DNA of 42,273 nt. Source: an uncultured Bacilli bacterium (GTDB lineage: Bacteria; Bacillota_I; Bacilli_A; RF39; UBA660). Of this stretch, positions 6,026 to 23,260 are shown one piece after another. The notes under the pieces are model-generated. The model made no database searches, had not been told where the DNA came from, and worked only from the letters and a program-made list of their open reading frames with translations. The stretch's first letter is position 1; each line of letters begins with the position of its first letter. The DNA lies in the NCBI GenBank assembly GCA_947631515.1, contig CANRLP010000002.1, positions 1-42,273 of the forward strand, read 5' to 3'. Position numbers and translations under genes: made by a program.

Positions 6026-6056
6026 CTAGGCATGAGATTTTAGGTTGGTGAGTGAA

Positions 6057-9697: not shown

Positions 9698-9713
9698 AAG
9701 GGTGGAGTAAATA

Positions 9714-10124
9714 GTGAAAGAATCCTATTGGGGTTATTGGTTGATTACGTTAGGTGTATTTATAATAATTATTATGATGCTAATATCAAATGTAACCACT
9801 AAAAATACTCAAGATTATTATTTAATCAAAGAAGTAACAGAAGCTTCGATGGTGGATGCCGTAAATTATGGTTATTATCGTGAGTATGGTGAATTAAAAA
9901 TTGACCGTGAAAAATTTATTGAATCATTCTTTCGAAGATTTTCCGAAAATGTCAGTTTAAATACATATAAAATTGAATTCTATGGTCTATATGAAGCACC
10001 ACCTAAAGTTAGTGTTAAAGTAACAAGTAATAGTGGTAGCTTTATAGTAGCAGGGGATCAAACAACGTTTGATATTGTAAATAAAGTAGATGCTATATTA
10101 GAGCTTTCTGGAACAAATGAATAA
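9714..10124 (+). CDS. Bitopic minor-pilin-like protein (136 aa)
   Basis: GTG start 6 nt after GGGTGGAG. The N-terminus MKESYWGYWLITLGVFIIIIMMLI shares an M-[KR]-E-x-x-x-G-x-W-[LI] leader plus hydrophobic helix with the ORFs at 14521 and 15000. Confidence 0.5.
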   Translation: MKESYWGYWLITLGVFIIIIMMLISNVTTKNTQDYYLIKEVTEASMVDAVNYGYYREYGELKIDREKFIESFFRRFSENVSLNTYKIEFYGLYEAPPKVSVKVTSNSGSFIVAGDQTTFDIVNKVDAILELSGTNE

Positions 10125-10141
10125 AAATGGAGGATTAAAAT

Positions 10142-10978: not shown

Positions 10979-11009
10979 TAAAAAAAGAATAAAAAGGGAA
11001 GGTGACTAA

Positions 11010-12227
11010 ATGACCAATGATGCTATATTTTCTCAATTAGATTTTGGACCCCTTGACGAATTTTTAAAACAAGATGACGTAACCGATATTTCTTATAGTA
11101 ATGGTGGCCAAATTTGGTTAAAGACTCTTTCCCGTGGTGTTTTTCAAGTAGAAAGACCCCAAATTAATAATGCTTTAATGGAAAAACTAGCTTTCCAATG
11201 TTCCAATGTTATGGGTAAAACATTCAATATGGCTCATCCCTTTTTGGATGCTGAATCAACTGAATTACGTTTAAACTTTGTCCATGAATCGATTGCTACT
11301 AATGGTATAGCTTGCTTAATTCGGAAGACACCTGCTAAAATTAGATTAAATCGTGAAAAACTTATTAACGAAAAATATGTTCGCGAAGATTTATTAGATT
11401 TCTTACTAGCCTGCGTTCAAGGTCATGCTAATATCATTGTTAGTGGTGAAACTGGTTCAGGTAAAACCGAGCTTGTTAAATACTTAGCTAGTACAACCAA
11501 AGAAAATGAAAAAATTATAACAATCGAAGATACTTTGGAATTACATTTAGATAGAATATTTCCTCATCGAGATATTGTCGCTATGAAAACCAATAACATT
11601 GCCTCATATACTGATGTTTTGGTTACTTGTATGCGTCAAAATCCTATTTGGATTTTACTATCCGAAGTTCGTAGTGCTGAAGCAGTTTTAGCCGTTCGTA
11701 ACTCTATATCATCTGGACACCATATAATTTCGACGATCCATGCAGATAAAGCAGCTAGTATTCCGATGCGTATGTATAGCTTACTAGAATCTAATCTAGA
11801 TGTTGAACAATTTTTATCAACTATTCATCGCTATGTCCAAATTGGAATATATGTTAAAGGTTATTTAAGTAAAGAACTAGGAAGATTTCAACGGGAAATT
11901 ATGGAAATTTGCGAATTCTATGTTGATGAAGACAACAAACCAAAAGCTAATACCATATTTCAAAAAACGATGGATGGTCAATTTACCTTAAATAATCCTA
12001 CGAAAAACTTAAGAGATTATTTAGCAATCCAAGGAGTAATTTTACCAGATGACATTTTTAGAACTACAGAAAGTCCTAAGCCAAATCTTAATCCTAGTCC
12101 AAATGTTACTCCTGTTACTCCTAATTTAAATCAAAATGTAACACCAAACATAAATACATCAAATATGCCAAATCCGAGTCAAGTATCACCCAATATTAAT
12201 ATGATAAACAATCAACAAGCGATATAA
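11010..12227 (+). CDS. TadA/CpaF-type (VirB11/GspE superfamily) secretion ATPase
   Basis: Walker A SGETGSGKTE, Asp box ITIEDTLEL, Walker B-like IWILLSEVR, His box SGHHIISTIHA. The C-terminal ~55 aa are a Pro/Asn-rich low-complexity tail. Followed by two T2SSF-like membrane proteins. Confidence 0.8.
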   Translation: MTNDAIFSQLDFGPLDEFLKQDDVTDISYSNGGQIWLKTLSRGVFQVERPQINNALMEKLAFQCSNVMGKTFNMAHPFLDAESTELRLNFVHESIATNGIACLIRKTPAKIRLNREKLINEKYVREDLLDFLLACVQGHANIIVSGETGSGKTELVKYLASTTKENEKIITIEDTLELHLDRIFPHRDIVAMKTNNIASYTDVLVTCMRQNPIWILLSEVRSAEAVLAVRNSISSGHHIISTIHADKAASIPMRMYSLLESNLDVEQFLSTIHRYVQIGIYVKGYLSKELGRFQREIMEICEFYVDEDNKPKANTIFQKTMDGQFTLNNPTKNLRDYLAIQGVILPDDIFRTTESPKPNLNPSPNVTPVTPNLNQNVTPNINTSNMPNPSQVSPNINMINNQQAI

Positions 12228-12254
12228 TATATATAAAAGAGAGTAGGTGCAAAA

Positions 12255-13148
12255 GTGGAATTAATTATATTATTAATAATTGCTATTTACGTTATATCTT
12301 ATCGTCAAAATAATGGCCAAAATGTTTATAAATTCTTCATCTCACAAGTTAGTGAAGTATATGATAAATATGCGCCATATAGCTATAAAGAAGTAAGAGA
12401 AAAAGTTAAAGCTTTAGGACAAGATTTTACAACTCGAGAATACATTTCTCAAGTTGCAATATTTGGAATTGTTGCTGGTGGTATATCTTACTTATATTTT
12501 TATAATATTATCATCGCCCTTATCTATGCTGGAGTAGCAATAGCTTTTATTCCTTATTTAACTTATTTAAGATATCAAAAAATATATAGTGAATTTATCT
12601 TTGAACAAATTCAAATATATACAACAAATGTTATTATGGAATTTACTACAACGCAAAGTTTTGTTAAATCACTAGAAGGAGTTAGAGATTCTGGTATTTT
12701 AGAAGATCCAGTATTACAAGATGTTAAAACTATGATCGAAATGTCATATCAAAATGGTACTATCGATGAATCTATTGAATTCTTTAATGAAAAATATCCA
12801 TTTTATATGGTTAAAAATATGAATCAATTATTCCTTCAAATTACAAAAGAAGGTGCTAAAGATTCTGGAGAAGCCTTAGAAAATATGAGTCAAGACATCG
12901 ATGCTTTAGTTGAAGGAGTATATCGTGATCAAGTTGACCGTAAAAACTTCCATAAACGTTTCATAACTTTCGGACTAGCTTTATTCTTACTAGTTATGGC
13001 CATGCAATTTTTACTAGGAACCGATAGTTATATTGAACTATTAGATATTTGGTATGTTCAAATTATTTTACATTTAATATTAATAATAAATAGTTATTTC
13101 TTAATTAGTGGTGAGAAATACTATAACGAAGACTTGGGGGTAGAATAG
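12255..13148 (+). CDS. TadB-like (T2SSF-type) pilus platform membrane protein
   Basis: GTG start 5 nt after TAGGTG. Topology is N-terminal TM helices, a ~130-aa cytoplasmic helical domain and C-terminal TM helices, as in TadB/GspF-type platform proteins. The call rests on topology and its position next to the ATPase. Confidence 0.5.
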   Translation: MELIILLIIAIYVISYRQNNGQNVYKFFISQVSEVYDKYAPYSYKEVREKVKALGQDFTTREYISQVAIFGIVAGGISYLYFYNIIIALIYAGVAIAFIPYLTYLRYQKIYSEFIFEQIQIYTTNVIMEFTTTQSFVKSLEGVRDSGILEDPVLQDVKTMIEMSYQNGTIDESIEFFNEKYPFYMVKNMNQLFLQITKEGAKDSGEALENMSQDIDALVEGVYRDQVDRKNFHKRFITFGLALFLLVMAMQFLLGTDSYIELLDIWYVQIILHLILIINSYFLISGEKYYNEDLGVE

Positions 13149-13149
13149 T

Positions 13150-13938
13150 ATGGCCATTGAAATATTGTTAATTGGGGGTATTATTCTATTCGTCATGAAT
13201 TATACAGGACGTATTAGTGCTAATAAATTTATTGCTGATAATGAAGTTTACTTTAAAAAATTAAAAGAAGATGATTGGGACTTTTTCGTTAAAGCTAAAT
13301 ATGGTGATGGAGTAAACGCCGATGTTTTATTTAATAAAAGAATTCGTAATGGTTTAATTATTATAGTAGTTTTAATATTTTGCTTCATCTCTAAATTAAA
13401 TTATGTAACTATTTTATTTTCGATTTTAGGAGGATTCTTAGTATTTAAATTAGATTATTTAAATATTAAAAAATATTACAAAGCTCATTTACATGAAATC
13501 GATGCTATGCTACCTCATTACTTAAAAAGTTTAGAAATATTAATTCAACACTATACTGTGCCTGTAGCTATAGGTAAATCAATTGATGATGCTCCAGCTA
13601 TATTTAAAGAAGGTTTACAAGAATTAATTAATGAAATAAATTCTGGTAATGATAAAATCGATCCATATGTTAACTTTGCTAAAGAGTATCCCGTTAGAGA
13701 TTCCATGCGAATGATGCGTTTATTATATCGGTTAAGTTTAGGACGTCAAGAACATAAACAAGAACAATTACTTGCTTTTTCCAAAACTATCTCTAACTTA
13801 CAACAAAAAGCACGTGACATTAAATATAAAGAACGTCTAGAAAAAATGGAATCAAAAACAATGAGTATGTTGATAACTACTGGCCTAGGAGTTATGATTC
13901 TCTTAATCTTCTCTGTATTAATGTTAATGGGTACATAA
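13150..13938 (+). CDS. TadC-like (T2SSF-type) pilus platform membrane protein
   Basis: Starts 2 nt after the previous stop. Similar architecture: N-terminal TMs, cytoplasmic helical domain, C-terminal TM MLITTGLGVMILLIFSVLMLM. The call rests on topology and context. Confidence 0.5.
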   Translation: MAIEILLIGGIILFVMNYTGRISANKFIADNEVYFKKLKEDDWDFFVKAKYGDGVNADVLFNKRIRNGLIIIVVLIFCFISKLNYVTILFSILGGFLVFKLDYLNIKKYYKAHLHEIDAMLPHYLKSLEILIQHYTVPVAIGKSIDDAPAIFKEGLQELINEINSGNDKIDPYVNFAKEYPVRDSMRMMRLLYRLSLGRQEHKQEQLLAFSKTISNLQQKARDIKYKERLEKMESKTMSMLITTGLGVMILLIFSVLMLMGT

Positions 13939-13944
13939 AAAATA

Positions 13945-13973
13945 TTGATATTATAATAAAAAAAAGATATAAT
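13945..13973 (+). promoter_or_regulatory. Internal sigma-A-type promoter ahead of the pilin genes
   Basis: TTGATA (13945-13950), 17-nt spacer, TATAAT (13968-13973), followed by a strong RBS AGAGGAGG before ATG 14001. Confidence 0.5.
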
Positions 13974-14000
13974 AAAAAATAGAATAGAGGAGGAAGAAAA

Positions 14001-14246
14001 ATGAAGGAAGCCACTGGAGAATTAAATATGACTGTTGTAACAGTAGTAGCAATTGCCGCTGTAGCAGCATTCTTCTATGCCTTTGTATGGCCATCTATAA
14101 AAAATAGTATTACTAGAAATACAAATTGTGCCAACGCTAGTTGTCCTGCTGGATGTACAACAGCTACTTGTGCTTGTACTTATATAGATGATAAAGGTGC
14201 AACTCAATCTGTTACATGTCCAAACCCAGATACAACTAAAAAATAA
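14001..14246 (+). CDS. Flp-sized pilin candidate 1 (81 aa) with Cys-rich C-terminal head
   Basis: AGGAGG RBS 8 nt upstream. Short polar leader MKEATG, then ELNMTVVTVVAIAAVAAFFYAFVW (hydrophobic helix), then a 6-Cys tail CANASCPAGCTTATCACTY...TC. Tandem paralog of the 14265 gene. Confidence 0.6.
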   Translation: MKEATGELNMTVVTVVAIAAVAAFFYAFVWPSIKNSITRNTNCANASCPAGCTTATCACTYIDDKGATQSVTCPNPDTTKK

Positions 14247-14264
14247 TATAAAAGGAGTTTATAA

Positions 14265-14504
14265 ATGAAACAAGCCACTGGAGAATTAAATATGACTGTT
14301 GTAGTAGTTATAGCGGTAGGAGTCCTAGCGGCTTTTTTCTATACAACTTTATGGCCCCAATTAAAAGGAAGTTATATTGCATCTAGTAAATGTAATGATG
14401 CCGTATGTGATCCTAAAACTTTAAGAGATGGTAAAGTTACATGCAATTATTATAAAAATGGTGAAATCCAAGGTAAAAGCTTTGAATGTGTTTGGAAAGG
14501 TTAA
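14265..14504 (+). CDS. Flp-sized pilin candidate 2 (79 aa)
   Basis: AAGGAG RBS. Leader MKQATG, then ELNMTVVVVIAVGVLAAFFYTTLW, then a 4-Cys tail. Nt 14272-14303 are identical to 14008-14039 of the first pilin gene. Confidence 0.6.
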   Translation: MKQATGELNMTVVVVIAVGVLAAFFYTTLWPQLKGSYIASSKCNDAVCDPKTLRDGKVTCNYYKNGEIQGKSFECVWKG

Positions 14505-14520
14505 TTGAGGAAGTGATAAT

Positions 14521-14973
14521 ATGAGGGAAGCAATAGGTGGAACATGGTTATTTCAAATAGTAATTATTTTCGTCTTATTATTTACAGGATTCATGTGTTT
14601 AACAATTAACCATTCCAAAGCATTTAATGTTAAAAATACTATTATAAAAGCCATTGAAAGAGAAGAAGGCGCCGATTTAAATAATCCTAACCAAGATCCA
14701 GCAATTCGGAGAATTGTTTCTTATTTAAGAGAAGCATCTTATCGAACAACAGGTAATTGTCCGAATGGTTATATTGGCTATAACAGAGATGGTCTTATTG
14801 ATAGTCGAAATTCTGCTTTTTGTATTCAAAAAACAGTAACTAAAAATTCTAATGATTTACCAGATATGAGTTATTATCGAGTTGTGGTATTTTATCAACT
14901 TGATTTGCCGATATTTAATGAAGTATTTAATTTTACTGTAACTGGAGATACCAGATTAATTAATAAAAGTTAA
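14521..14973 (+). CDS. Minor-pilin/TadE-like protein (150 aa)
   Basis: N-terminus MREAIGGTWLFQIVIIFVLLFTGFMCL, then a globular part with a Cys pair (GNCPNG...AFCIQK). Paralog of the 15000 gene. Confidence 0.5.
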   Translation: MREAIGGTWLFQIVIIFVLLFTGFMCLTINHSKAFNVKNTIIKAIEREEGADLNNPNQDPAIRRIVSYLREASYRTTGNCPNGYIGYNRDGLIDSRNSAFCIQKTVTKNSNDLPDMSYYRVVVFYQLDLPIFNEVFNFTVTGDTRLINKS

Positions 14974-14999
14974 AACTATACAGAGAAGTAGGTGATAAA

Positions 15000-15488
15000 A
15001 TGAGAGAAGCAATAGGTGGAACATGGATTATGCAATTAGTAATCGTTTTTATGTTGATTTTCGTTGCTTTTTTAGCTTTGTCACTAAATTATAGTAAAGC
15101 TTTTCAAATGAAAAATGAAGTAATGACTATAATTGAAAAAAGAGAAGGCTTAACTACCGGACCAAATGGTAGTATAGCTTTAATTAATAGTTATTTGTCT
15201 AATAATGGGTATCGTGTAAGAAGAGGGTGTCCAGTTGGTAGTTATGGCGTATCAGATTTAACAAATTCCACCATTGAAAAAGTTGCCACAACCGGTAAAC
15301 AATATTATTATTGTGTTCAAAAAGTTAAATCGGGAACTAAAAATGAACCTCAAAAAGCATATTATAAAATTAATATTTTCTTTTATTTTAACTTGCCAGT
15401 AGTGGGAGACATTTTCAAATTTAATATTAATGGAGCAACTAATGATATTCTTATTCCTGCCGATAATTTACAAGCAATAACAGAATAG
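15000..15488 (+). CDS. Minor-pilin/TadE-like protein (162 aa)
   Basis: N-terminus MREAIGGTWIMQLVIVFMLIFVAFLAL, with a Cys pair (RGCPVG...YYCVQK). Nt 15006-15026 are identical to 14527-14547. Confidence 0.5.
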   Translation: MREAIGGTWIMQLVIVFMLIFVAFLALSLNYSKAFQMKNEVMTIIEKREGLTTGPNGSIALINSYLSNNGYRVRRGCPVGSYGVSDLTNSTIEKVATTGKQYYYCVQKVKSGTKNEPQKAYYKINIFFYFNLPVVGDIFKFNINGATNDILIPADNLQAITE

Positions 15489-15501
15489 GTGATGAATTTA
15501 T

Positions 15502-16506
15502 ATGAATGTAATTGTATCAAATAAATATCAATCTTTATTAGCAACCTTAGATATTGATATTATAAAAAGTATCAATGGAGAATTTGAAGTAGAAGATTTA
15601 ATAAGTCAATTTACCAACTTTTACTTTAACAAAATGGTATTAGATATTACAGCTATCAAAAATTATCAAGATATTTCCACTTTACAAACTTTATCCGTAA
15701 ATATGGATGTAAGCAATATCATTTTATTATTGGATGACTCAGAAATAGTTAATTCTCCTCGTTACTTATCTGCTTTAGTTTCTATGGGAATTTATAATTT
15801 CACCCGCAATATAGATGCGATAAAATTTTTAATAAATAATCCTAACACCTATAAAGATGTTGCTCAATATCACCAATTAAATGCTGTTAATATGGTAAGT
15901 GATGATAATAATTCAAATTCAGGTACTATTAATAAATTAGGATTACGAGTAATAGGTATTAAAAATGTTACAGAACATTCTGGATCAACCACTTTAACTT
16001 ACTTACTAAAAAAACATTTAGAAAAAAAATACAGTTGTATAGCAGTTGAAGTAGATGAACATGATTTTATTTACTTAAATGATAAAGAACTAAAAGCAAC
16101 TTCCAGTTTAGATTTACCATCTTTTATTGCTACTCATAGTGATGCCGAAGTAATATTAGTTGACTTAAATGATCGTGGTAGTATCAGTAGTTGTACAGAA
16201 GTTATATATCTAATAGAGCCGGGATTAGTTAAATTAAATAAATTAATACGTAAAGACAAGAGAACATTTGAAAAATTAAAAGATAAAAAAATTGTATTAA
16301 ATCGGAGCGTATTAAGTGAAAAAGATATCAAAGATTTTGAATACGAATCTAGAAGCAAAGTATTTTTTAACATTCCTAATCTTGACGACAAAGTAGATCA
16401 ACACAAAATTATTTATGATTTTTTAATAAAATTGGGTTTTGTTAGATTTGAAGAAACTAGTGAAGAAACAAAAAGTAGTAAACTATTTAACATATTTAAG
16501 TCATAA
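15502..16506 (+). CDS. TadZ/CpaE-like protein (receiver-like N-domain + degenerate ParA/MinD-type domain)
   Basis: The N-terminal ~120 aa look like a pseudo-receiver (alternating beta/alpha pattern, MVLDITAI). Where CpaE/TadZ carry KGGxGxT, this protein has LRVIGIKNVTEHSGSTTLTYLL, a degenerate P-loop. The call rests on context and architecture. Confidence 0.45.
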   Translation: MNVIVSNKYQSLLATLDIDIIKSINGEFEVEDLISQFTNFYFNKMVLDITAIKNYQDISTLQTLSVNMDVSNIILLLDDSEIVNSPRYLSALVSMGIYNFTRNIDAIKFLINNPNTYKDVAQYHQLNAVNMVSDDNNSNSGTINKLGLRVIGIKNVTEHSGSTTLTYLLKKHLEKKYSCIAVEVDEHDFIYLNDKELKATSSLDLPSFIATHSDAEVILVDLNDRGSISSCTEVIYLIEPGLVKLNKLIRKDKRTFEKLKDKKIVLNRSVLSEKDIKDFEYESRSKVFFNIPNLDDKVDQHKIIYDFLIKLGFVRFEETSEETKSSKLFNIFKS

Positions 16507-16509
16507 AAC

Positions 16510-16538
16510 TTGACATTAGTGTAAATTAAATATACAAT
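16510..16538 (+). promoter_or_regulatory. Consensus-like sigma-A promoter heading the T4SS-like module
   Basis: TTGACA (16510-16515), 17-nt spacer, TACAAT (16533-16538). An 8-bp palindrome ACAATTGT (16534-16541) overlaps the -10. Confidence 0.6.
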
Positions 16539-16571
16539 TGTTATAGAAATTGAGAGAGAGGTTTATATAAA

Positions 16572-16943
16572 ATGAATTTATTTTTAACAGGAGCAATTGA
16601 TTTTTGTAAAGGAACTGCTAATATTTGGCAAATAGTTGGATATGTTTTATTAGTATTTAAAATTATTATTCCAATTCTTTTAATTGTATTTGGTATGCTT
16701 GATTTAGGAAAAGCAGTAACTGCTAGTAAACCAGATGAAATTAAAAAATCTGTAACTGGTTTAGCATATAGAGCAGTAGCAGGTGTGGTTATCTTTTTAA
16801 TTCCAACAATTGTAGGACTTATAATGGGATTTGTATCTGATTTTAGTACTTCTGGTGCTAAAGATGATTTTGAAATTTGTCGATCATGTATTACAAGACC
16901 AAATGGTGATTGTAGCGGATATGCTTCTGATGCATGGAAATAA
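16572..16943 (+). CDS. VirB2/TrbC-like two-TM hairpin protein, paralog 1 (123 aa)
   Basis: Two hydrophobic helices, IVGYVLLVFKIIIPILLIVFG and AVAGVVIFLIPTIVGLIMGF, joined by the polar loop MLDLGKAVTASKPDEIKK. Cys-containing tail (CRSC...C). Flanked by its own promoter and terminator. Confidence 0.55.
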   Translation: MNLFLTGAIDFCKGTANIWQIVGYVLLVFKIIIPILLIVFGMLDLGKAVTASKPDEIKKSVTGLAYRAVAGVVIFLIPTIVGLIMGFVSDFSTSGAKDDFEICRSCITRPNGDCSGYASDAWK

Positions 16944-16966
16944 AAGCAAGAAATTGCTTTTTTTTT
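16944..16966 (+). terminator. Rho-independent terminator/attenuator after VirB2-like gene 1
   Basis: AAGCAA (16944-16949), loop GAAA, TTGCTT (16954-16959), T tract to 16966. Confidence 0.6.
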
Positions 16967-16999
16967 GGCTCTATGTTATAGTAAAGATAGGTGAGAATC

Positions 17000-18118
17000 A
17001 TGAAACAAATCATAAATCTATCTAAAGAATTTTTAGGTAAATTTGATAAACAAAAACTATTTTTATTAGGAAGTATTATTGGAGTAATGGTTGTCATTAT
17101 TATTACAATATCAATTGTAGTTAAAATTGTTGGACTTCATATTTCTTACGAAGATTTAGAAGAAAAACTAGCTCGGGCAACTGAACAATATATGAATGAT
17201 TATCCAAATAATTTGCCTACGGAAAGTAATCCAACAGTTGTAGTTACTACTTCAACTTTAGTAGAAAATAAATATATTAAAGAAATAACTAAATATGTAA
17301 AAGATAATTCTTGTACTGCTAATATTAATGTTTATTACAATAATGGAAAATATAAATATCAACCATTTGTAATATGCAATGATTTTAAAACTGAACTATT
17401 TATAGATCGCTTAAAAACGGATAATGTAATCTCAGCTTTCGGTGAAGGATTATATGAATTAAATGGGGAACAAGTATATCGTGGTCAAAATCCTAATAAT
17501 TTTATGATGTTTGCCGATGAATTATGGCGGATTGTTAAAATTAATGCTAATGGTCAATTTATCATAATCAAAAATGATTTAGAATCCAAAAATTATGGTA
17601 ATTGGGATAATCGTTATAACACAGAAGCTCAAACTCAAAAAGGTAATAACACTTTTGCTTTAAGTCGAGCTCTAATAGCTATAACAGAAATTTATAGAGA
17701 AAAATATTTAGATTATGAAAAATATTTAAATACTTTTGAAGTTTGTGCTGGAAAAAGAGATAGTGGATCTTTTGATAAAAGTGGTGCAATAGAATGTAGT
17801 ACTAAATTAAGTAATCAATTTATTTCTTTATTACCATTATACGATTATATGAATGCTAGTTTAGATAATTCATGCGTAAATGCTAGTAGTAGAGAATGCC
17901 AAAATTATAATTATTTAGTCAATAAAAAAGATAAATGGTGGACAGTAACGGGAGATGCTAAAAATTCTTACAATGTATATTATATAAATACTTCTGGTCA
18001 AATTAATTCAGAAGAAGCAGCTATTAGTGCTAATTACCGGTATATTTTAGCATTAGATAAAAACGTATTGTATAAAGAAGGAACGGGTACAGAAGAAGAC
18101 CCATATATAATTCGTTAG
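17000..18118 (+). CDS. Bitopic exported protein (372 aa), T4SS-associated (VirB8/adhesin candidate)
   Basis: The ATG at 17000 lies 6 nt after AGGTGA; the track GTG at 16991 is inside the RBS. N-terminal TM LFLLGSIIGVMVVIIITISIVV, 6 Cys in the ectodomain, internal ELWRIVKINANGQFIIIKND and C-terminal KWWTVTGDAKNS... motifs, ending GTGTEEDPYIIR. Confidence 0.55.
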   Translation: MKQIINLSKEFLGKFDKQKLFLLGSIIGVMVVIIITISIVVKIVGLHISYEDLEEKLARATEQYMNDYPNNLPTESNPTVVVTTSTLVENKYIKEITKYVKDNSCTANINVYYNNGKYKYQPFVICNDFKTELFIDRLKTDNVISAFGEGLYELNGEQVYRGQNPNNFMMFADELWRIVKINANGQFIIIKNDLESKNYGNWDNRYNTEAQTQKGNNTFALSRALIAITEIYREKYLDYEKYLNTFEVCAGKRDSGSFDKSGAIECSTKLSNQFISLLPLYDYMNASLDNSCVNASSRECQNYNYLVNKKDKWWTVTGDAKNSYNVYYINTSGQINSEEAAISANYRYILALDKNVLYKEGTGTEEDPYIIR

Positions 18119-18150
18119 ATATTTTTAAAAACATCCAAATAGCAGATAAA

Positions 18151-18179
18151 TTTACAAACTATTTTTAACATGCTATAAT
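18151..18179 (+). promoter_or_regulatory. Sigma-A-type promoter with extended -10 ahead of VirB2-like gene 2
   Basis: TTTACA (18151-18156), 17-nt spacer, TGc-TATAAT (18171-18179). Confidence 0.5.
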
Positions 18180-18205
18180 GACTATAGAAAAATTAGGTGA
18201 GTAAT

Positions 18206-18559
18206 ATGGAAGACATTTTTTTAACTCTTTTGTCATCATCAAGTTTATGTAGCGAAAGTGGAGTATTAAAATCATTTCGTTTTATTGGCTATATTTTATT
18301 TATAATCAAAATTCTTATTCCTGTAATTTTAATTATTATGGGATCTATAAATTTTGGTAAGGCCGTTCTTGATTCAAATAATGATAGTGTAAAAAAAGCA
18401 GGAATTACTTTTGCTACACAAATAGTTTCGGCAGTGGTAATTTTTCTTATACCAACCATTGTTAATTTTGTATTTGGCTTGCTTCCACAAGAAAATGTAA
18501 GCTATGAAAATTGTGCTACTTGTTTATTTGATCCAACAAATTGTAAAATAAATGATTAG
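18206..18559 (+). CDS. VirB2/TrbC-like two-TM hairpin protein, paralog 2 (117 aa)
   Basis: The ATG at 18206 lies 5 nt after AGGTGA. Shares with paralog 1 the pattern IGYILFIIKILIPVILIIMGSINFGKAV...KK...AVVIFLIPTIVNFVFG. Cys tail CATCLFDPTNC. Confidence 0.55.
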   Translation: MEDIFLTLLSSSSLCSESGVLKSFRFIGYILFIIKILIPVILIIMGSINFGKAVLDSNNDSVKKAGITFATQIVSAVVIFLIPTIVNFVFGLLPQENVSYENCATCLFDPTNCKIND

Positions 18560-18586
18560 AAAGTATTATATTTTTAATACTTTTTT
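18560..18586 (+). terminator. AT-rich hairpin terminator after VirB2-like gene 2
   Basis: AAAGTATTA (18560-18568), 6-nt loop, TAATACTTT (18575-18583), T tract to 18586. The stem is all A/T apart from one G-C pair, so it is weak. Confidence 0.4.
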
Positions 18587-18603
18587 ATTTGCACATTTAA
18601 TAC

Positions 18604-18632
18604 TAGTATTGTTTAGAAAATGTTGGTATAAT
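18604..18632 (+). promoter_or_regulatory. Extended -10 promoter ahead of the 391-aa VirB2-domain fusion gene
   Basis: TGg-TATAAT (18624-18632). The -35 position reads TAGTAT, which is weak. Confidence 0.4.
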
Positions 18633-18666
18633 TATAAAGAGTAAGTGAAAAAAGTAGGGATATGTC

Positions 18667-19842
18667 ATGAAGAAAATTTGTCAAGTTATAATACTTTTTA
18701 TGGGAATGCTTTTTGGCATTTCTATTGTTAATGCTAAAAATACTTTGATGACATGTGAATATTATAAAGCTGAAGATCAATTAGAAGGTTCTCCCCAAGC
18801 TGGTATTCTCTGTAATATTTTTACAGATTATTCTCATCAATGCTATGTTGAAGTAGGGGCTGCTAAAGCTACTACTAGTTCAAATAAAGAAAAAATTCAA
18901 AACTGGAATTCAGCAGTAGGATTGTCATGGAAAGCTAAAGATTATGTTCAACAAAGTAATCAATGTCCGGAATATTTAGTTGTTCGTTTAAAAAATGGTG
19001 CTTGGTTTAATGCGGGTGGTTATGAATTACATGCTGCGGCATCTCAACAAGAAGCCTTAGATTTAAGCCTTAAATTAAGTGATCAAAGATATTTAGCTCA
19101 TAAAATTGGTGATGCTAGTGCTGCTGAAACTGCCAAAGCTGTTGCCGATGTTCAAAGTTTTATAGATAATATGAATGATACTAAAAATAATTATTCTTTA
19201 AATTCTTGTAAAAATGATAATGTTATTTCAACTCGATTACAAAAATGTAATGATATAATATCTGCTTTAGAAAGTCGGATGGCTAGTTATGATACTAACG
19301 TAACTAATATGATTAATGCCGGTTATTTAAATGAAGATGATGATATTATAAAATCATATCGAGAAACAGTTGAAAATACGGAAAATTTTATTAATCAAGC
19401 CGAATCAGAATTAAGTGTTGAAGAAGAAAAAATTAAACAAGAAATGGGTTTGGCTGATGAAGATATAGTTGCAAATCCTAATAATATGAGTTGCCGTGTG
19501 ATAGATAATAAATATTATGATATTAATGGTAATGAAGTTACTAAAGAAGAATATGCAACTTCTTGTAATGCTGATTGTGGTATTTTTAGTGGTCGATTAG
19601 GGGATTTTTTAAAAACAATTTTATCTTTTATTCGCTTTGCTGTACCTATAATCATTATAGGGTTAGGAATTATGGATTTTTTAAAAGCTACTGCTTCACA
19701 AGATAACAATGAAATCAAAAAAGCGGCAACTAAATTAGTAAAAAGAATGGTAATTGGTATAATAATATTTGTTTTACCAACATTAATTGAATTAATACTT
19801 CGCTTAGCGGATATTAAATATGGTACTTGTGGTATTAGATAG
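18667..19842 (+). CDS. Exported coiled-coil protein with C-terminal VirB2-like hairpin domain, paralog 3 (391 aa)
   Basis: Signal peptide MKKICQVIILFMGMLFGISIVNA/KN. A ~300-aa Cys-containing/helical ectodomain. The C-terminal LKTILSFIRFAVPIIIIGLGIMDFLKATASQDNNEIKKAATKLVKRMVIGIIIFVLPTLIELIL matches the hairpin of paralogs 1 and 2. Confidence 0.6.
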   Translation: MKKICQVIILFMGMLFGISIVNAKNTLMTCEYYKAEDQLEGSPQAGILCNIFTDYSHQCYVEVGAAKATTSSNKEKIQNWNSAVGLSWKAKDYVQQSNQCPEYLVVRLKNGAWFNAGGYELHAAASQQEALDLSLKLSDQRYLAHKIGDASAAETAKAVADVQSFIDNMNDTKNNYSLNSCKNDNVISTRLQKCNDIISALESRMASYDTNVTNMINAGYLNEDDDIIKSYRETVENTENFINQAESELSVEEEKIKQEMGLADEDIVANPNNMSCRVIDNKYYDINGNEVTKEEYATSCNADCGIFSGRLGDFLKTILSFIRFAVPIIIIGLGIMDFLKATASQDNNEIKKAATKLVKRMVIGIIIFVLPTLIELILRLADIKYGTCGIR

Positions 19843-19857
19843 AAAGGAGGCATCTAA

Positions 19858-21813
19858 ATGAAATGGTTAGCTAATGGTTTAATAGGAATTTTACTATATC
19901 TAGATGGAATAGTTTATTGGTTGATTAGCCTTCTATTTGATTTATATGAAAAATTAGCTGGAGCCGATATTTTTGCTAATAGTGGATTATACGAAGAAGT
20001 TTCTCAAAGATTTTTAGTAGTCATTGGCGTTTTTATGCTTTTTTACTTAGCTTATTCACTATTAAGAGCTTTAGTTAACCCTGATGAATTATCTAAAAAT
20101 ACTAGTAAAATAGTTATTAACATTGCTGTCTCGCTAATTTTATTAAATGTGGTTCCGGTAATATTTAACTATGCTTTTGAACTTCAAAATATTATAATTG
20201 AGGACAAAGTTATTAGTAAATTTGTTTTTGGCAATGGCGATACAACTATTGCTAGTGTCGGAAAAAGTACAGCTTTAACTTTTTTTGATGCTTTTATTGA
20301 AGTTAAAGGTACTCCGGAAATAAAGGGAGATCGTACTTACACCTGGGATACTTTAAAAATATGTATTGATGATAATACTTCACCCGGTTGTGTCGGAAAT
20401 GAAAGTTTTCGAAGTTTACATTTGTTATCTGATGCAGTTGTTGCTGGAGACATTGAGTACACATGGTTAATTAGTACTTTATGTGGTGCATTTTTAGTAT
20501 ATGTTATTGCTTCCTTTTGTATTGATTTAGGTATACGAGTTGTTAAACTGGGCTTTTATCAAATTATTTCCCCAATACCGATATTATTGCGAATAATTCC
20601 AGAGAAAAAAAGCGTTTTTGATAACTGGGTAAAAGCTACTTTGGCTACTTATTTAGAAGTATTTATTCGCTTATTTATAATGTATTTAATCACTTTTATA
20701 GCATCTAAGATTTTAGATTTAGATTTTTCAGGACTAGGTATATTTGGTAAAATTATTGTTTTAATGGGTATTTTTGCCTTTGGTCGTCAAGCCCCTAAAT
20801 TAGTAGGTGAAGTTATTGGTGTAAATTCTGGTAATATTAAACTTGGTATTCGTGATAAATTAACAACTGGAGGTGCTTTCGCTGCTGGAGCTGTACTTGG
20901 TGGAGCGGGAACAACAATTGCAAGAAATTTAACACATGGTTATAATAATTTTAAGCAAGCTGAAGGTGGATGGAATAAATTCAAAGCCTTTGGTAGAACT
21001 GTAGGAAGTACTTTGACTGGCGCTGCTAGTGGAGCAATAAGAAGTGGTTATCAAGCGAGAAATGCTAAAAACTTTACTGATATGCGTAATGCTACTAATA
21101 AAGGAATTCAAACAACTATAGATAATCGAAACAAAGGAGAGTCATATAGAGCTAGTCATGCGACTACGGGAGTCATGAGAGGTCATGCTACAGATTTCGC
21201 AAGGTCTGTTGGTGAATGGGCTGGTGTAACTGCTGGTGAAGAAGGATTAAAGAAGCAATTGGATATTTATACTAAAGGAGCAGATTTCAAAAAGCAATTA
21301 GAAGATTTAGCTTTAAAGAAAAGTACAAAAGCCAAATTATATGATCAACAAATAGATGCTTTAAATAAAGAAGCTATAGATCCTAATAGTTTTAAAGATG
21401 CCAATGGTGTATTAGATAATGCTTCTTATAGTGCTGCTATATCTGCTAGAGCTAGTCAAATCGATCAATTAAGAAGAGCTAAGAATTTTGAGGTTATGAA
21501 AGTTGTTAGTGAAAAACTAAATAATATAGATGATGCTAAAAATATTGAATTTAAACAAATTGTTAATTCTTTTGAAACTTATAAAAAACAAAATGCTAAC
21601 TTAGCCGGAATAAATGATTTACAAGATCTAACAACTACAAATTGGAATTCATCTTGGGATAATATAGATGCTATGAGTTTAACAAAGAATGATTTTGATA
21701 AAATTAAAAATCAAGTATCATATACATCTAATCATGAAACATTAAATGCCAAGAAGAATGAGACTGCTGCTAAATATGCTGAGCATATTCAAAAGACGCA
21801 AGAAAAGAAGTAG
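19858..21813 (+). CDS. VirB6/TrbL-like polytopic T4SS channel protein (651 aa)
   Basis: GGAGG RBS. The N-terminal ~330 aa carry multiple TM helices, followed by Gly/Ala-rich segments (TTGGAFAAGAVLGGAGTT) and a long hydrophilic coiled-coil tail. Size, topology and position upstream of VirB3/VirB4 fit Gram-positive VirB6 analogues. Confidence 0.55.
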   Translation: MKWLANGLIGILLYLDGIVYWLISLLFDLYEKLAGADIFANSGLYEEVSQRFLVVIGVFMLFYLAYSLLRALVNPDELSKNTSKIVINIAVSLILLNVVPVIFNYAFELQNIIIEDKVISKFVFGNGDTTIASVGKSTALTFFDAFIEVKGTPEIKGDRTYTWDTLKICIDDNTSPGCVGNESFRSLHLLSDAVVAGDIEYTWLISTLCGAFLVYVIASFCIDLGIRVVKLGFYQIISPIPILLRIIPEKKSVFDNWVKATLATYLEVFIRLFIMYLITFIASKILDLDFSGLGIFGKIIVLMGIFAFGRQAPKLVGEVIGVNSGNIKLGIRDKLTTGGAFAAGAVLGGAGTTIARNLTHGYNNFKQAEGGWNKFKAFGRTVGSTLTGAASGAIRSGYQARNAKNFTDMRNATNKGIQTTIDNRNKGESYRASHATTGVMRGHATDFARSVGEWAGVTAGEEGLKKQLDIYTKGADFKKQLEDLALKKSTKAKLYDQQIDALNKEAIDPNSFKDANGVLDNASYSAAISARASQIDQLRRAKNFEVMKVVSEKLNNIDDAKNIEFKQIVNSFETYKKQNANLAGINDLQDLTTTNWNSSWDNIDAMSLTKNDFDKIKNQVSYTSNHETLNAKKNETAAKYAEHIQKTQEKK

Positions 21814-22380
21814 GTGAATGAAGTGAGTTTTTTAGACATACTGAGAGACTGGCCTACTGGGAATTATCATGATTATACAATGGAAAATGATATTTATGAT
21901 CAGCTACTAAATTTAATCGATCAATTAGAGGAAAAATTGGAGATAATTGCTTTAAAAGGAACATTGAGTGATGCTTGGGCCACATTTGAATATTCAGATA
22001 CAATATATACCTTAATATTACTTAAAAGTTTGATTGAGTTAAGAATAAAACAAAATATAAGAAAAATAAATAAATCTATGTTAGTTGAATTAGAACATTT
22101 ACAAAACTTTTATAAAAAAATGGAAGAAATCGTAAAAAATAATATTATTAAAGTTTGTTCTTATGAAGAAGGCATGGAAGAAGTTTATTGGAATTTAATG
22201 GAAATAAAAAAATTACTTTTAAATAGTGCTAGTCTAAAAGCAATAAGAAGTCTAAATTTTGATTATCAAAATTTAGATTTAACTTATAATCAAATTCAGC
22301 AATTAAAACAAAGTATAACAATAAGGAAATGTGAAATTGTTCCATATATAGAAGATATGAATTATCAAAAAAAGAAATAA
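21814..22380 (+). CDS. Hypothetical cytoplasmic helical protein (about 185-188 aa)
   Basis: Begins immediately after the upstream TAG. The start is GTG 21814 or, more likely, in-frame GTG 21823, 5 nt after AGGTGA. No TM segment and no recognised motif. Confidence 0.45.
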   Translation: MNEVSFLDILRDWPTGNYHDYTMENDIYDQLLNLIDQLEEKLEIIALKGTLSDAWATFEYSDTIYTLILLKSLIELRIKQNIRKINKSMLVELEHLQNFYKKMEEIVKNNIIKVCSYEEGMEEVYWNLMEIKKLLLNSASLKAIRSLNFDYQNLDLTYNQIQQLKQSITIRKCEIVPYIEDMNYQKKK

Positions 22381-22395: not shown

Positions 22396-22707
22396 ATGAA
22401 TCATAATTACTTAATACCAGCCAATTCTAAAAAATCTATGTTGATACTAGGCTTTTTTACCCCTGTAGATTTAGCAATATTTGGAACGGGTTGTGCCTTT
22501 ACTTTAATAATGCTACTAGTTTTTAACTCGAAAGTAGGTTTAGGATCCGTCATGTTATTACTTGCTCCTGCTTTGATTGCTACATTCTTAGTAATGCCAG
22601 TCCCAAATTATCACAATATATTACAATTAATAACTAACATTTTTACATTTTTACTTGGAAGAAAAAGGTATTATTGGAAAGGCTGGTGTGTAAAAGATGA
22701 AAAATAA
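22396..22707 (+). CDS. PrgI/VirB3-like small membrane protein (103 aa)
   Basis: AAGGAG RBS. Two TM helices (MLILGFFTPVDLAIFGTGCAFTLIMLLVF; SVMLLLAPALIATFLVMPV). Lies immediately upstream of, and overlaps by 11 nt, the VirB4 N-domain gene, as PrgI-family genes do in Firmicute T4SSs. Confidence 0.6.
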   Translation: MNHNYLIPANSKKSMLILGFFTPVDLAIFGTGCAFTLIMLLVFNSKVGLGSVMLLLAPALIATFLVMPVPNYHNILQLITNIFTFLLGRKRYYWKGWCVKDEK

Positions 22708-23260
22708 TGAATCAAGTGTTTCAAGCAAATATACAGAAGATTGGATGCCAATAAAACAAATTTTAAATGGTATGATTCAACTTGATAATGGGGAATTTGT
22801 TACAGGTGTTAAAGTAACACCTCGGAACATATTTATCTTAGATCAAGGTACTCAAGATAATGTAATTTATAATCTACGTAATTTTTATAATACAATTGAT
22901 TATGAATTTTGGTTGATAGTTGCAGATCGACCTGTTGATATAAATATTTATTTATCCCAATTACAGGTTTTATATAATAATGCAACGACAGGAACAATGC
23001 GTAAATTAATAATGCAAGATATAAATAAAGCTAATATGTTTATGAGTGCTGAATACAATGTAGTCGATACTGAATATTTTATTATATTCAAAGAAAAGAA
23101 AATGGAAATTATTCAAAAAAGATTACATAATCTAATTGCTAATCTTTCTACTTGTGGATTAATTTCTACTCAAGTATCGAATAATGACTTGCGAATGTTA
23201 ATTGACAATTTCTTAAATGGGGGAAAACCATCAACATTAGGAACGGTGATGCCAGAATGA
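22697..23260 (+). CDS. VirB4 N-terminal domain encoded as a separate 187-aa protein
   Basis: EDWMPIKQILNGMIQLDNGEFVTGVKVTPRNIFILDQGTQDNVIYNLRNFYNTIDYEFWLIV... follows the pattern I recall for the first ~190 aa of single-chain Firmicute VirB4 ATPases. Its stop overlaps the next start (ATGA). Confidence 0.55.
   Translation: MKNNESSVSSKYTEDWMPIKQILNGMIQLDNGEFVTGVKVTPRNIFILDQGTQDNVIYNLRNFYNTIDYEFWLIVADRPVDINIYLSQLQVLYNNATTGTMRKLIMQDINKANMFMSAEYNVVDTEYFIIFKEKKMEIIQKRLHNLIANLSTCGLISTQVSNNDLRMLIDNFLNGGKPSTLGTVMPE

Follow-up and report, generated by a model that had tools for sequence, protein, structure and literature searches.

The first-pass annotation of a 42,273-nucleotide stretch of DNA from an uncultured Bacilli bacterium (the window) described three small hairpin modules and likened them to VirB2/TrbC pilins. 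Does a Gram-positive T4SS here have pilin subunits? The question matters since T4SSs of this kind are said to have no pilin-like subunits. That absence, which the annotation repeated, is indeed the textbook view (PMC12857230, PMC12102498), but it holds only in part: TraB of pIP501/pRE25 is a genuine hairpin protein of the CagC family (58 bits), and arrays of VirB2-like pilins are already known in Patescibacteria, to which we propose a putative counterpart in an uncultured gut Firmicute.

Gene context of the hairpin proteins

The hairpin genes (p1, p2 and p3) lie directly 5' of VirB6-, VirB3-, TrsD-, VirB4-, hydrolase- and VirD4-like genes, with a Tad-like pilus module further 5':

6045..16506, + strand, Tad-like pilus module, assigned from family matches; syntenic with p1 in about 30 loci
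16572..16943, + strand, p1, free hairpin protein of 123 aa
16991..18118, + strand, g375, conserved bitopic membrane protein with an N-terminal TM and an exported domain, encoded after p1 and before the fused hairpin genes
18206..18559, + strand, p2, free hairpin protein of 117 aa with a CxxC...C tail (p2-type tail)
18667..19842, + strand, p3, 391 aa: signal peptide, ectodomain, C-terminal hairpin module
19858..21813, + strand, polytopic VirB6/TrbL-like membrane protein, long C-terminal extension; next after the hairpin array in 46 loci
21814..22380, + strand, 188-aa protein, no family match; poorly conserved (5 loci)
22396..22707, + strand, VirB3/PrgI/TcpE-like small membrane protein (TcpE E 0.069); conserved in 46 loci
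22697..23260, + strand, TrsD-like protein (N-terminal domain of VirB4 on its own polypeptide); NCBIfam VirB4_plasma positions 94-276, E 3e-13
23257..25041, + strand, VirB4 ATPase; P-loop_TraG, AAA_10 and CagE_TrbE_VirB matches; 90% identity across relatives
25056..27455, + strand, multi-domain, membrane-anchored cell-wall hydrolase (VirB1/PrgK-like role); SpoIID/LytB domain, E 1.6e-6
27465..28241, + strand, 258-aa bitopic protein in a possible VirB8-like position, assigned by position alone; no family match
28289..30460, + strand, VirD4-type coupling protein; T4SS-DNA_transf 6e-54, also TrwB_AAD_bind and TraG-D_C

The three modules occupy the VirB2 position of a T4SS locus, before VirB6-VirB3-TrsD-VirB4. 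Of 64 related loci tabulated, 45-46 keep this order from the array onwards. This is a chromosomal locus, and the window lacks a relaxase, an integrase and a tRNA. Among the machine genes, the VirB6/TrbL-like gene has an ortholog with a weak TrbL match (locus L003), the VirB3-like protein has a second match, to the N-terminus of the VirB4 model from Mycoplasma ICEs, and orthologs of the TrsD-like protein (for the role of TrsD see PMC12102498) match Pfam TraC-like. The g375 gene, which 26 loci have 0.4-1.1 kb 3' of p1, had no family match. The Tad-like module comprises two Cys-rich exported proteins, DUF5411, RcpC/SAF, a T2SSE ATPase, two TadB/C-like proteins, small pilins (14001 and 14265), TadE-like proteins (14521 and 15000) and a 334-aa cytoplasmic protein, and it adjoins p1 in roughly half of related loci (about 30/64).

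Paralogy and topology

The three modules are paralogs, as the first-pass annotation had proposed from a core aligned by eye, and the features it described are all in place. BLASTP joins p1 to p2 at 1e-22 (38% identity over 97 aa), p1 to p3 at 4e-14 and p2 to p3 at 3e-12, and local-alignment z-scores for the pairs are 30, 18 and 17 against 2000 shuffles. Because scores of 16 and 12 persist when TM1, loop and TM2 are each shuffled separately, the match is not due to composition. The by-eye motifs are equally real, P34, K47, K58-K59, P78-T79 and C103 being invariant across the trio. For p2, a ribosome-binding site (AGGTGAG, 18195-18201) precedes the ATG at 18206; the ORF lister places the start at GTG 18197.

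In p1, an N-tail (aa 1-19) with an invariant FCxxTANIW motif is followed by TM1 (aa 20-43), a basic loop (aa 44-68), TM2 (aa 69-89) and a Cys-rich tail (aa 90-123); the AF2 model (pLDDT 77.5) has helices at 16-50 and 54-88. The loop is net basic (5 K/R vs 3 D/E in p1, 6 vs 2 in p3) and the flanks are acidic or neutral, in agreement with the two-TM hairpin originally described and with an N-out/C-out orientation in which the loop is cytoplasmic. For p1 there are 218 homologs; four of its Cys are invariant, and over 174 modules a Cys is 97-100% conserved on each outer flank. Conservation within p1 is 78-79% in the loop and TM1 and 36-48% in the outer tails. There is no Sec signal peptide on p1, and the orthologs of p2 in relatives bear a signal peptide and an ectodomain.

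An exported domain joined to a hairpin, also part of the original description, is what p3 proves to be. Its signal peptide is typical (residues 1-23, nt 18667-18735, VNA/K), its ectodomain (aa 24-305) is confidently modelled by AF2 as a beta domain plus three long helices (pLDDT 83.6), and its hairpin module (aa 309-380, nt 19591-19806) ends in a short tail with a terminal Cys. Across 32 p3 homologs, identity is 56-68% in the hairpin, and divergence of the ectodomain is fast.

Promoters and terminators

Both free hairpin genes are flanked by the promoter and terminator elements claimed for them:

16510..16538, + strand, p1 promoter, sigma-70-type, TTGACA-17-TACAAT, 11/12 consensus positions
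16942..16966, + strand, p1 intrinsic terminator: 8-bp AT-rich stem, GAAA loop, U-run; overlaps the stop codon
18151..18179, + strand, p2 promoter, TTTACA-17-TGcTATAAT (TG extension), 11/12 consensus positions
18558..18592, + strand, p2 weak terminator: AT-only hairpin, then a U-rich tract
18624..18632, + strand, extended -10 upstream of p3, TGgTATAAT, read from the sequence, without a good -35

The p1 terminator (hairpin 16942-16961, U-run up to 16966, fold -6.8 kcal/mol) was missed by the scanner's rule, its AT content being too high; the hairpin 3' of p2 (18558-18585) folds at -8.4 kcal/mol, z -2.6. Promoter-like sites in 13800-23500 show no excess (69 vs 64 by chance), and only one other site there scores as high as those of p1 and p2. 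A promoter matching at least 10/12 positions within 75 nt 5' of p1 occurs in 81/82 related loci, compared with 3.4% of random windows and 7% of other ORFs, and a hairpin with a T-run of at least 6 follows the p1 stop in 71/82, vs 15% for other ORFs. Hence p1 is probably an independently transcribed, abundant unit, and since this strong monocistronic arrangement is conserved in more than 85% of loci, a large excess over the channel subunits is suggested.

Arrays in related genomes

Uncultured gut Bacilli carry the hairpin family in 377 species-level genomes, and it forms 10,634 clusters at 50% identity. In the 47 loci of relatives with VirB6 downstream, arrays have 2-7 hairpin genes with a free p1 always first, and in all 47 the array is bracketed by p1 and VirB6, always in a single orientation. 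Most later members (130/157) consist of an N-terminal ectodomain plus the hairpin, and those having at least 40 aa ahead of the hairpin have a signal-peptide-like N-terminus in 141 of 147 cases. C-terminal ectodomain fusions exist as well, consistent with a hairpin that has both ends outside. The ectodomains of the wider family are diverse (esterase, GDSL lipase, C39-like and M15 peptidases), and one hairpin-esterase fusion, P0171, lies amid mur genes with no T4SS nearby. Identity to relatives falls from 90% for VirB4 to 62% for p1 and 31% for the p3 ectodomain, a gradient of evolutionary rates that fits exposure; the small pilins, at 55-60%, are similar to p1.

Similarity to known pilins

Judged by sequence, homology of the hairpin family to pilins is borderline. 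The Pfam T4SS_pilin family (PF18895) scores 22.6, 18.1 and 16.3 bits with p1, p2 and p3, all under the cutoff of 26.6, and comparable scores arise spuriously between TM hairpins: the family profile matches rhodopsin TM5-6 at 19.5 bits, and Frizzled was matched at up to 1e-4. However, the p1 match is direction-specific, with 29/33 orthologs (best 4e-7) and 0/33 reversed decoys. Among 148 diverse representatives, no Pfam family but PF18895 was matched more than once (19 matched it at E<=1e-4), and the p1, p2 and p3 module types align to mostly one span of the model (start 3-12, end 63-71 of 71). T4SS_CagC (PF16943) was matched by 2/33 p1 orthologs. The VirB2/TrbC label of the first-pass annotation keeps this PF18895 support but loses the rest: no member matches Pfam TrbC/VirB2 (PF04956), neither solved conjugative nor solved archaeal pilins gave a sequence match, Foldseek found no pilin similarity, and hhalign against the pIP501 TraB/CagC family was not significant (E 0.27-0.32).

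Possible roles of the hairpin array

We give roughly even chances to the reading in which p1, p2 and p3 are putative VirB2-position subunits of a chromosomal Gram-positive T4SS, p1 being the major subunit and the fusions minor subunits that display ectodomains. The host system would be an MPF-FATA-type T4SS of the separate-TrsD subclass, apparently relaxase-less and genetically coupled to the Tad-like pilus module. Each hairpin would insert with its N and C ends outside and the conserved basic loop in the cytoplasm, and the Cys on the two outer flanks would probably clasp it through a disulfide. Made from its own strong promoter/terminator unit, p1 would be the abundant major subunit; later members (p2, p3 and up to six in relatives), which share its hairpin, could co-assemble with it at a VirB6/VirB3/VirB4 platform. 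Such co-assembly would display the fast-evolving ectodomains, elsewhere in the wider family predicted lipase, esterase and peptidoglycan-peptidase domains, outside the membrane, on a polymer that may be an extended pilus or merely a short wall-spanning conduit. This reading draws on the paralogy, the gene order, the array architecture, the conserved regulation of p1, the direction-specific PF18895 match and the Patescibacteria parallel. Counting against it are the sub-cutoff PF18895 scores and the similar scores of spurious TM hairpins, the missing matches to PF04956, solved pilins and TraB, a p1 without the Sec signal peptide that VirB2 and TraB have, four loci in which p1 comes straight after TadC, and the P0171 fusion away from any T4SS.

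It is less probable, though a serious competitor, that the hairpins, like pIP501 TraB, are channel subunits embedded in the membrane which never leave it, the ectodomains being tethered adhesins or mating-channel wall hydrolases and no filament being formed. TraB has a signal peptide and two TM, is needed for transfer, binds channel components and oligomerises (PMC9083827); its topology is the same, and both genes sit in a T4SS operon 5' of VirB3 and VirB4 (PMC9083827), TraB immediately before VirB3 and the array here with VirB6 and the 188-aa gene intervening. Bacillus thuringiensis pBMB67 has a signal-peptide, two-TM protein at the same place, before TrbL-PrgI-VirB4, large N-terminal ectodomains seem difficult to pack in a VirB2-type helical lattice, and a Gram-positive T4SS pilus has not been observed so far (PMC12857230). 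Against this stand the non-significant profile-profile comparison with the TraB family, a p1 family that matches PF18895 and not PF16943, the excess over channel subunits suggested by the conserved p1 transcription unit, and arrays of up to seven variable paralogs, which are more like pilin arrays than a channel subunit.

The size of the family, the variety of its ectodomains and P0171 among mur genes would suit a lineage-specific general anchor of surface proteins, mechanistically unlinked to the T4SS and adjacent to it through clustering of surface-protein genes. We regard this as improbable, because all 47 loci with VirB6 downstream keep the array in one place and orientation, PF18895 is matched in a direction-specific way, and a mere anchor leaves unexplained why the most conserved, ever-present member is a free p1 without ectodomain. 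Still less probable is that p1 belongs to the Tad-like pilus machine (e.g. to its platform, assembly apparatus or filament), with the fused paralogs alone working for the T4SS. The position of p1 at the junction of the two modules invites this, as do four loci (L071, L077, L080 and L081) where p1 is immediately 3' of TadC and small pilin and TadE-like genes were undetected between them; in L080, the sole one of the four examined in full, p1 is followed by housekeeping genes (addB/addA-like), with no T4SS gene within 10 kb downstream. Yet a second large group of relatives, among them those named Candidatus Ventrenecus, has p1 at the head of the array next to the T4SS, and no Tad gene was detected in the available upstream flank. 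The hairpin of p1 also recurs in the array members. In L003 and L004 the gene immediately 5' of p1 encodes pyruvate kinase. A Tad/Flp pilin has a single TM and a class III leader, and p1 has no such leader.

Comparison with known systems

The VirB2/TrbC/TraA conjugative pilins of Gram-negative T4SSs (PF04956) share with our proteins a two-helix hairpin and a gene at the start of the mating-pair-formation genes. T-pilin and TrbC undergo head-to-tail cyclisation, for which the putative clasp by conserved Cys could stand in here. They differ in lacking sequence or Foldseek similarity to our proteins, in having a leader peptide, absent from p1, and in that the host here is monoderm; the reviews cited report no ectodomain fusions of VirB2-type pilins. 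TraB of pIP501/pRE25 (annotated among 'CagC family T4SS proteins', PF16943) is likewise a small two-TM hairpin with ends outside and loop cytoplasmic, encoded before VirB3-TrsD/TraD-VirB4 (PMC9083827). Unlike the p1 family (hhalign E 0.27-0.32), it has a Sec signal peptide but neither conserved cysteines nor ectodomain fusions, and is single-copy, plasmid-borne and beside a relaxase.

The closest plasmid VirB4, 28% identical, is that of pBMB67, which also has the order small two-TM protein, TrbL, PrgI and split VirB4. Its neighbouring genes (large surface protein, small protein, SAF/RcpC, T2SSE ATPase, TadB/C-like, small pilin and TadE-like, DUF4320) are ordered similarly to our Tad-like module as judged by annotation and gene sizes, not by sequence comparison. 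However, pBMB67 is conjugative, carries a MobP3 relaxase and has a single signal-peptide-bearing hairpin gene instead of an array, and tblastn of p1 against 72,556 plasmids found nothing. Tandem variable copies of surface subunits beside a conserved machine also occur in the VirB2/VirB5 arrays of the Bartonella Trw T4SS, where they are read as adhesion or host-range variation (PMC12857230); that system is Gram-negative, with canonical VirB2 and no domain fusions.

Patescibacteria have arrays of 2-11 VirB2-like pilins adjoining a TrsD-VirB4 T4SS without relaxase (PMC12102498, PMC12857230). As in Southlakia epibionticum and Nanosynbacter lyticus TM7x, several divergent hairpin genes lie near a monoderm-type VirB4, a separate TrsD, VirB3 and VirB6 in a chromosomal locus that has no relaxase close by, and PF18895 is the sole recurrent Pfam match (PMC12102498, PMC12857230). 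In contrast, the host here belongs to a spore-forming, peptidoglycan-containing Bacillota lineage from animal guts, and scores are at or under the PF18895 cutoff. Most members here are fusions with signal-peptide-bearing ectodomains, not mentioned for Patescibacteria arrays in PMC12102498 and PMC12857230, the array is always led by a p1 without signal peptide under its own promoter and terminator, and a Tad-like module adjoins it in about 30/64 related loci.

Genomic organization of the hairpin locus

The window is a chromosome segment of an uncultured organism with a G+C content of 28%, in which a 24-kb block of genes, all on the (+) strand, is bordered by genes for housekeeping, division and sporulation. 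The block is made up of a Tad-like pilus module and a type IV secretion system (T4SS) that opens with the three hairpin genes p1, p2 and p3:

Flank on one side of the block: ftsW, PTS EIIB, cotZ and a thioredoxin-like protein
6045-16506, (+), Tad-like pilus module, first part of the block: two Cys-rich exported proteins, DUF5411, RcpC/SAF, T2SSE ATPase, two TadB/C-like proteins, two small pilins, two TadE-like proteins and a 334-aa cytoplasmic protein (g334)
16572-30460, (+), T4SS, second part of the block: three hairpin genes, VirB6-like, VirB3-like, TrsD-like, VirB4, a SpoIID-domain wall hydrolase, a 258-aa bitopic protein and VirD4
16572-16943, (+), p1, free hairpin protein of 123 aa
16991-18118, (+), g375, bitopic membrane protein
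18206-18559, (+), p2, free hairpin protein of 117 aa
18667-19842, (+), p3, 391 aa, signal peptide, ectodomain and C-terminal hairpin
Flank on the other side of the block: rhodanese, DedA, rmuC, ftsA, ftsZ, spoIIGA, sigE, a second sigma factor, nrdD and nrdG

No relaxase or integrase family was matched in the 42-kb window by a Pfam scan covering the ORFs of at least 90 aa that are not nested antisense in a larger gene, plus the two small pilin ORFs, and neither a tRNA nor an Rfam family was found there. Within the window, the locus does not display the features by which a conjugative element is recognized (relaxase, integrase or recombinase, attachment-site features). Relatives of p1 were found neither in 72,556 plasmids (tblastn) nor in the IMG/VR viral contigs (scan), so that a phage or plasmid origin is unsupported. 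A BRO-N domain protein lies at the far end of the window (41333-42172), after nrdD, nrdG and a dUTPase; the BRO-N family is common in phages and mobile elements.

With separate TrsD and VirB3/PrgI-like genes ahead of VirB4, the locus falls into the TrsD-containing subclass of MPF-FATA, and it includes a VirD4 coupling protein (E 6e-54) and a SpoIID/LytB-domain cell-wall hydrolase; TraC-like Pfam matches fall on the TrsD orthologs. VirB4 is split into a TrsD-like protein of 187 aa (22697-23260) and an ATPase of 594 aa (23257-25041), whose genes overlap by the 4 nt ATGA. Because the split is kept in 45 related loci, and also on the B. thuringiensis plasmid pBMB67, it is not a frameshift.

In the Tad-like module, the T2SSE ATPase is matched at 8e-27 and RcpC at 26.0 bits against a cutoff of 28.8; the TadB/C, pilin and TadE-like proteins have no Pfam match. 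The module is opened by an exported Cys-rich protein of 967 aa (6794-9697), which is without family match and among the fastest-evolving of the block. Four consecutive small proteins (14001-15488), two of them Cys-rich pilins of 79-81 aa and two TadE-like proteins of 150-162 aa, have in common a leader M-K/R-E-A-x-G followed by a hydrophobic helix, which by its sequence resembles a class III (prepilin) signal, yet the window yielded no prepilin peptidase. Adjoining the block is a thioredoxin-like, membrane-anchored protein with a CSHC motif (5495-5935, (-) strand) and a weak match to F-plasmid TraF (E 0.006); it could oxidise the numerous conserved cysteines of exported proteins, namely those of the hairpin flanks, the pilins and the 250-aa and 967-aa proteins.

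Three paralogous hairpin modules

The paralogy of p1, p2 and the C-terminus of p3, which had been recognized by eye in the first-pass annotation, is confirmed: the three are readily aligned, BLASTP yields E-values of 1e-22, 4e-14 and 3e-12, and shuffle tests give alignment z-scores of 17-30, or 12-16 with each helix and the loop shuffled separately. The AF2 model of p1 (pLDDT 77.5) is a hairpin of two helices of ~35 residues each (16-50 and 54-88), and that of p3 (pLDDT 83.6) consists of the signal peptide, a beta domain, three long helices and then the hairpin in common with p1. The hairpin loop is net basic and the flanks are acidic or neutral, a charge pattern that assigns the short loop between the two helices to the cytoplasm and the two termini to the outside. 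Domains are fused at either end of the hairpin, exported ones with signal peptides N-terminally and enzyme domains C-terminally. The N-out/C-out topology and the exported fusions speak against a holin or an immunity protein, and both identifications were rejected. Among 174 modules, one position ahead of TM1 and one to three behind TM2 hold a cysteine with 97-100% conservation, a pattern that suggests a disulfide clasp on the outer side.

The N-tails of p1 and of the window's p2 are short, uncharged and variable; a signal peptide is borne only by p3 and the other fusions, unlike p1 and p2. The starts of p1 (MNLFLT, 16572-16589) and p2 (MEDIFLT, 18206-18226) are similar, and a start M-D/N-x-F-L-T, which could be an insertion or processing signal, is seen in many p1 orthologs, the remaining N-tail being variable. 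The window's p2 is unusual in being without an ectodomain, whereas its counterparts in the closest relatives have ~260 residues ahead of the hairpin. That g375 and p2 together represent a split ectodomain-p2 fusion was rejected, since g375 has no similarity to that ectodomain and coexists with fused p2-type genes in relatives. An antisense ORF of 112 aa (19515-19853, (-) strand) overlaps the hairpin-coding region of p3, whose hydrophobic codons it mirrors, and is unlikely to be a gene; antisense ORFs of like kind overlap p1 and p2.

Similarity to pilin families

These proteins had first been read as VirB2-like, with the topology of VirB2/TrbC pilins. Their two-helix topology agrees with that reading, but the expected HMM match and leader peptide are missing: PF04956 (TrbC/VirB2) is unmatched by p1, p2 and p3 (E<=1), by 33 p1 orthologs (E<=0.01) and by 148 representatives (E<=1e-4), and neither p1 nor the window's p2 has the leader or signal peptide of a TrbC/VirB2 pilin. 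PF16943 (T4SS_CagC) is matched by p1 at E 0.33 and by 2 of the 33 orthologs at E<0.01, and an NCBIfam search gave only noise for the hairpin proteins. No profile match to solved pilins (F TraA, T-pilus VirB2, R388 TrwL, archaeal CedA1/TedC) was obtained when PDB sequences were searched with p1-family and general hairpin profiles, and Foldseek of the p1 model against the PDB returned nothing below E 1.8, a bare helical hairpin carrying little signal in both searches. PDB matches to the Ebola nucleoprotein and to TM5-6 of rhodopsin are clearly spurious and served to calibrate the noise.

The model that defines the VirB2-like pilin arrays of Patescibacteria is PF18895, T4SS_pilin (PMC12102498). 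Both p1 and p2 have it as their best Pfam match, and the p3 hairpin has it among its weak top matches, all three aligning to a largely common span of the model; the scores are 22.6, 18.1 and 16.3 bits, respectively, against a cutoff of 26.6 and a noise level of ~19-20 bits reached by unrelated TM hairpins (rhodopsin). Because of this noise level, we scanned reversed-sequence decoys of the 33 orthologs, none of which matches PF18895 (best decoy match to any family, E 0.0012). The orthologs themselves match PF18895 in 29 of 33 cases (E<=0.01, best E 4e-7), several carry a precomputed match, and no other Pfam family is matched by two or more members of the set of 148 diverse representatives. On these sequence comparisons, we conclude that the hairpin family is either divergently related to T4SS_pilin or a member at its border, a conclusion that does not extend to a link with canonical VirB2.

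Arrays and ectodomains in gut Bacillota

The close homologs of p1 number 218, all unnamed and from gut metagenomes, and relatives turned up in 377 genomes when each GTDB species was scanned through one genome. All of the relatives are metagenome-assembled. Among the loci listed, the best 80 are all from uncultured MAGs, mostly labelled Bacilli, 'Tenericutes' or 'Erysipelotrichaceae' and in four cases Muribaculaceae, with isolate names that point to rabbit, chicken, mouse, human and ruminant samples. A hairpin-only profile retrieves 10,634 clusters at 50% identity.

In the 47 loci with VirB6 downstream, the array comprises 2-7 hairpin genes (three in 24 loci, six or seven in 17), and its first gene is a free p1 without exception. 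Later members consist of an N-terminal ectodomain and a C-terminal hairpin in 130 of 157 cases and are free in 26, and 141 of the 147 members with at least 40 residues ahead of the hairpin have a signal-peptide-like start. No solved relative of the p3 ectodomain was found by Foldseek of the p3 model against the PDB (nothing below E 1). In further members of the family, a linker joins the hairpin to a downstream esterase, C39-like peptidase or M15 peptidoglycan peptidase; a GDSL lipase fusion and a tandem fusion of a p2-type and then a p3-type hairpin are also present (P0256, P0282 and P0153 are family proteins with a C39-like or M15 peptidase after the hairpin, or with tandem hairpins). In one locus, from a mouse-gut Bacilli MAG (L001, 11607-15752), a very acidic, apparently cytoplasmic protein of 1381 aa sits within the array, with g375 on one side and the fused hairpin genes on the other; it has no counterpart in the window.

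As in the setting of PF18895-type pilins, the array lies near a monoderm-type VirB4 with TrsD, VirB3 and VirB6. The order Tad module-p1-g375-fused hairpins-VirB6-VirB3-TrsD-VirB4 is kept gene for gene in about half of the loci. In the relatives named Candidatus Ventrenecus and in others, p1 and the array directly follow pyruvate kinase and head the T4SS, with replication genes after VirB4; the differing neighbours among relatives indicate that the locus occupies different chromosomal neighbourhoods. No mobility gene was found among the Pfam-annotated neighbours in four related loci (L001-L004), nor among the ORFs downstream of p1 in a fifth (L080).

Conservation was compared over 17 full-length relatives. 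Identity is highest in the motor and platform (VirB4 90%, TadA-C 86%, TrsD 80%), intermediate in p1 (62%), which is similar in this respect to the small pilins (55-60%), and lowest in the exposed parts, namely p2 (45%), the 967-aa surface protein (38%) and the p3 ectodomain (31%). Conservation within p1 peaks in the loop and TM1 (78-79%) and is lowest in the outer tails (36-48%).

Transcription signals

Both promoters proposed in the first-pass annotation, ahead of p1 and p2, are present and are among three 11-of-12 consensus matches in 13800-23500, the third of which precedes the first small pilin gene. In AT-rich DNA such matches in the window alone are weak evidence, and the comparative result is much stronger: 81 of 82 loci have a promoter of at least 10/12 in the 75 nt ahead of p1, as do 3.4% of random windows and 7% of other ORFs in controls, and in 71 of 82 the p1 stop is followed by a hairpin with a T-run of at least 6, versus 15% of other ORFs. 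The promoter and terminator sequences themselves vary among loci. This conservation makes p1 a monocistronic unit kept across the loci, as would suit a subunit required in excess. Ahead of p2 is a putative TG-extended promoter and behind it an AT-only hairpin; p3 has a putative extended -10 element only. A terminator scanner called none in the region scanned, because its rule needs three G-C pairs and the stems here are AT-rich.

Role of the hairpin proteins

With moderate confidence, we interpret the hairpins as VirB2-position subunits of a Gram-positive T4SS that has been domesticated and apparently has no relaxase, with p1 as the major subunit and the later array members as minor ones. The abundant component would be p1, which the later members would join through the common hairpin, presenting variable ectodomains; the assembly may extend from the cell as a pilus, form a short conduit across the wall or be a ring in the membrane.

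A less likely alternative is that the hairpins are subunits of a membrane-only channel resembling TraB of pIP501, an essential two-TM protein judged unrelated to VirB2 pilins (PMC9083827). TraB of pIP501/pRE25 belongs firmly to the CagC family (58 bits) and matches TrbC weakly. When three hairpin profiles were aligned to the TraB family with hhalign, and one to a 126-aa protein of pBMB67, the alignments were colinear despite being non-significant (E 0.32, 0.28 and 0.27 for TraB). An improbable reading takes the hairpin for a general anchor of surface proteins. It draws on one hairpin-esterase gene (P0171; L087, 10001-11245), which encodes a signal peptide, hairpin, linker and esterase and lies among mur ligase genes, distant from any T4SS or Tad gene, so that the module is also used outside arrays. 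Less probable still, p1 could be a component of the Tad machine. In four loci (L071, L077, L080 and L081) it directly follows TadC, with small pilin genes, TadE-like genes and g334 undetected. In L080, the sole one of the four viewed in full (p1 at 10007-10360), addB/addA-like housekeeping genes follow p1 and there is no T4SS gene within 10 kb, so that p1 is there linked to no module but the Tad-like one.

Our preferred interpretation of the hairpins as T4SS subunits can be extended to a picture that we regard as possible but doubtful. A widespread, uncultured gut lineage of Bacillota would build a VirB2-type filament of p1 across the Gram-positive wall, decorated with interchangeable ectodomain subunits (adhesins, lipases, peptidoglycan peptidases) that engage or breach other cells, and the machine, cooperating with the Tad-like pilus, would be a domesticated, relaxase-less sibling or source of the essential T4SS of Patescibacteria.

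Comparison with known systems

VirB2 and VirB5 are considered absent from Gram-positive T4SSs, Patescibacteria being the sole exception (PMC12857230) with an essential T4SS that has pilin arrays (PMC12102498, PMC12857230). In a limited literature search, neither T4SS_pilin-like arrays of Bacillota nor hairpin subunits fused to ectodomains were found described, and the same held for T4SSs of this gut lineage. The locus shows that a T4SS_pilin-like family occurs in Bacillota as well, kept in hundreds of gut species, and its architecture, of which no earlier description was found, combines one free subunit, predicted to be strongly expressed, with a variable set of ectodomain-bearing paralogs. 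This bears on the question of how DNA or protein passes through a thick wall without a pilus or conduit, for which the locus offers a concrete candidate for a surface structure of a Gram-positive T4SS, and it gives a first pointer to the function of over 10,000 metagenome protein clusters that lack annotation.

The closest plasmid system is that of pBMB67, whose VirB4 is 28% identical and which also possesses a Tad-like module, with an 851-aa protein at the position of the window's 967-aa protein. Unlike the window, pBMB67 has a relaxase and a single protein with a signal peptide and two TM helices before TrbL. The locus may represent an evolutionary bridge between the conjugation machines of Firmicutes and the essential system of Patescibacteria.
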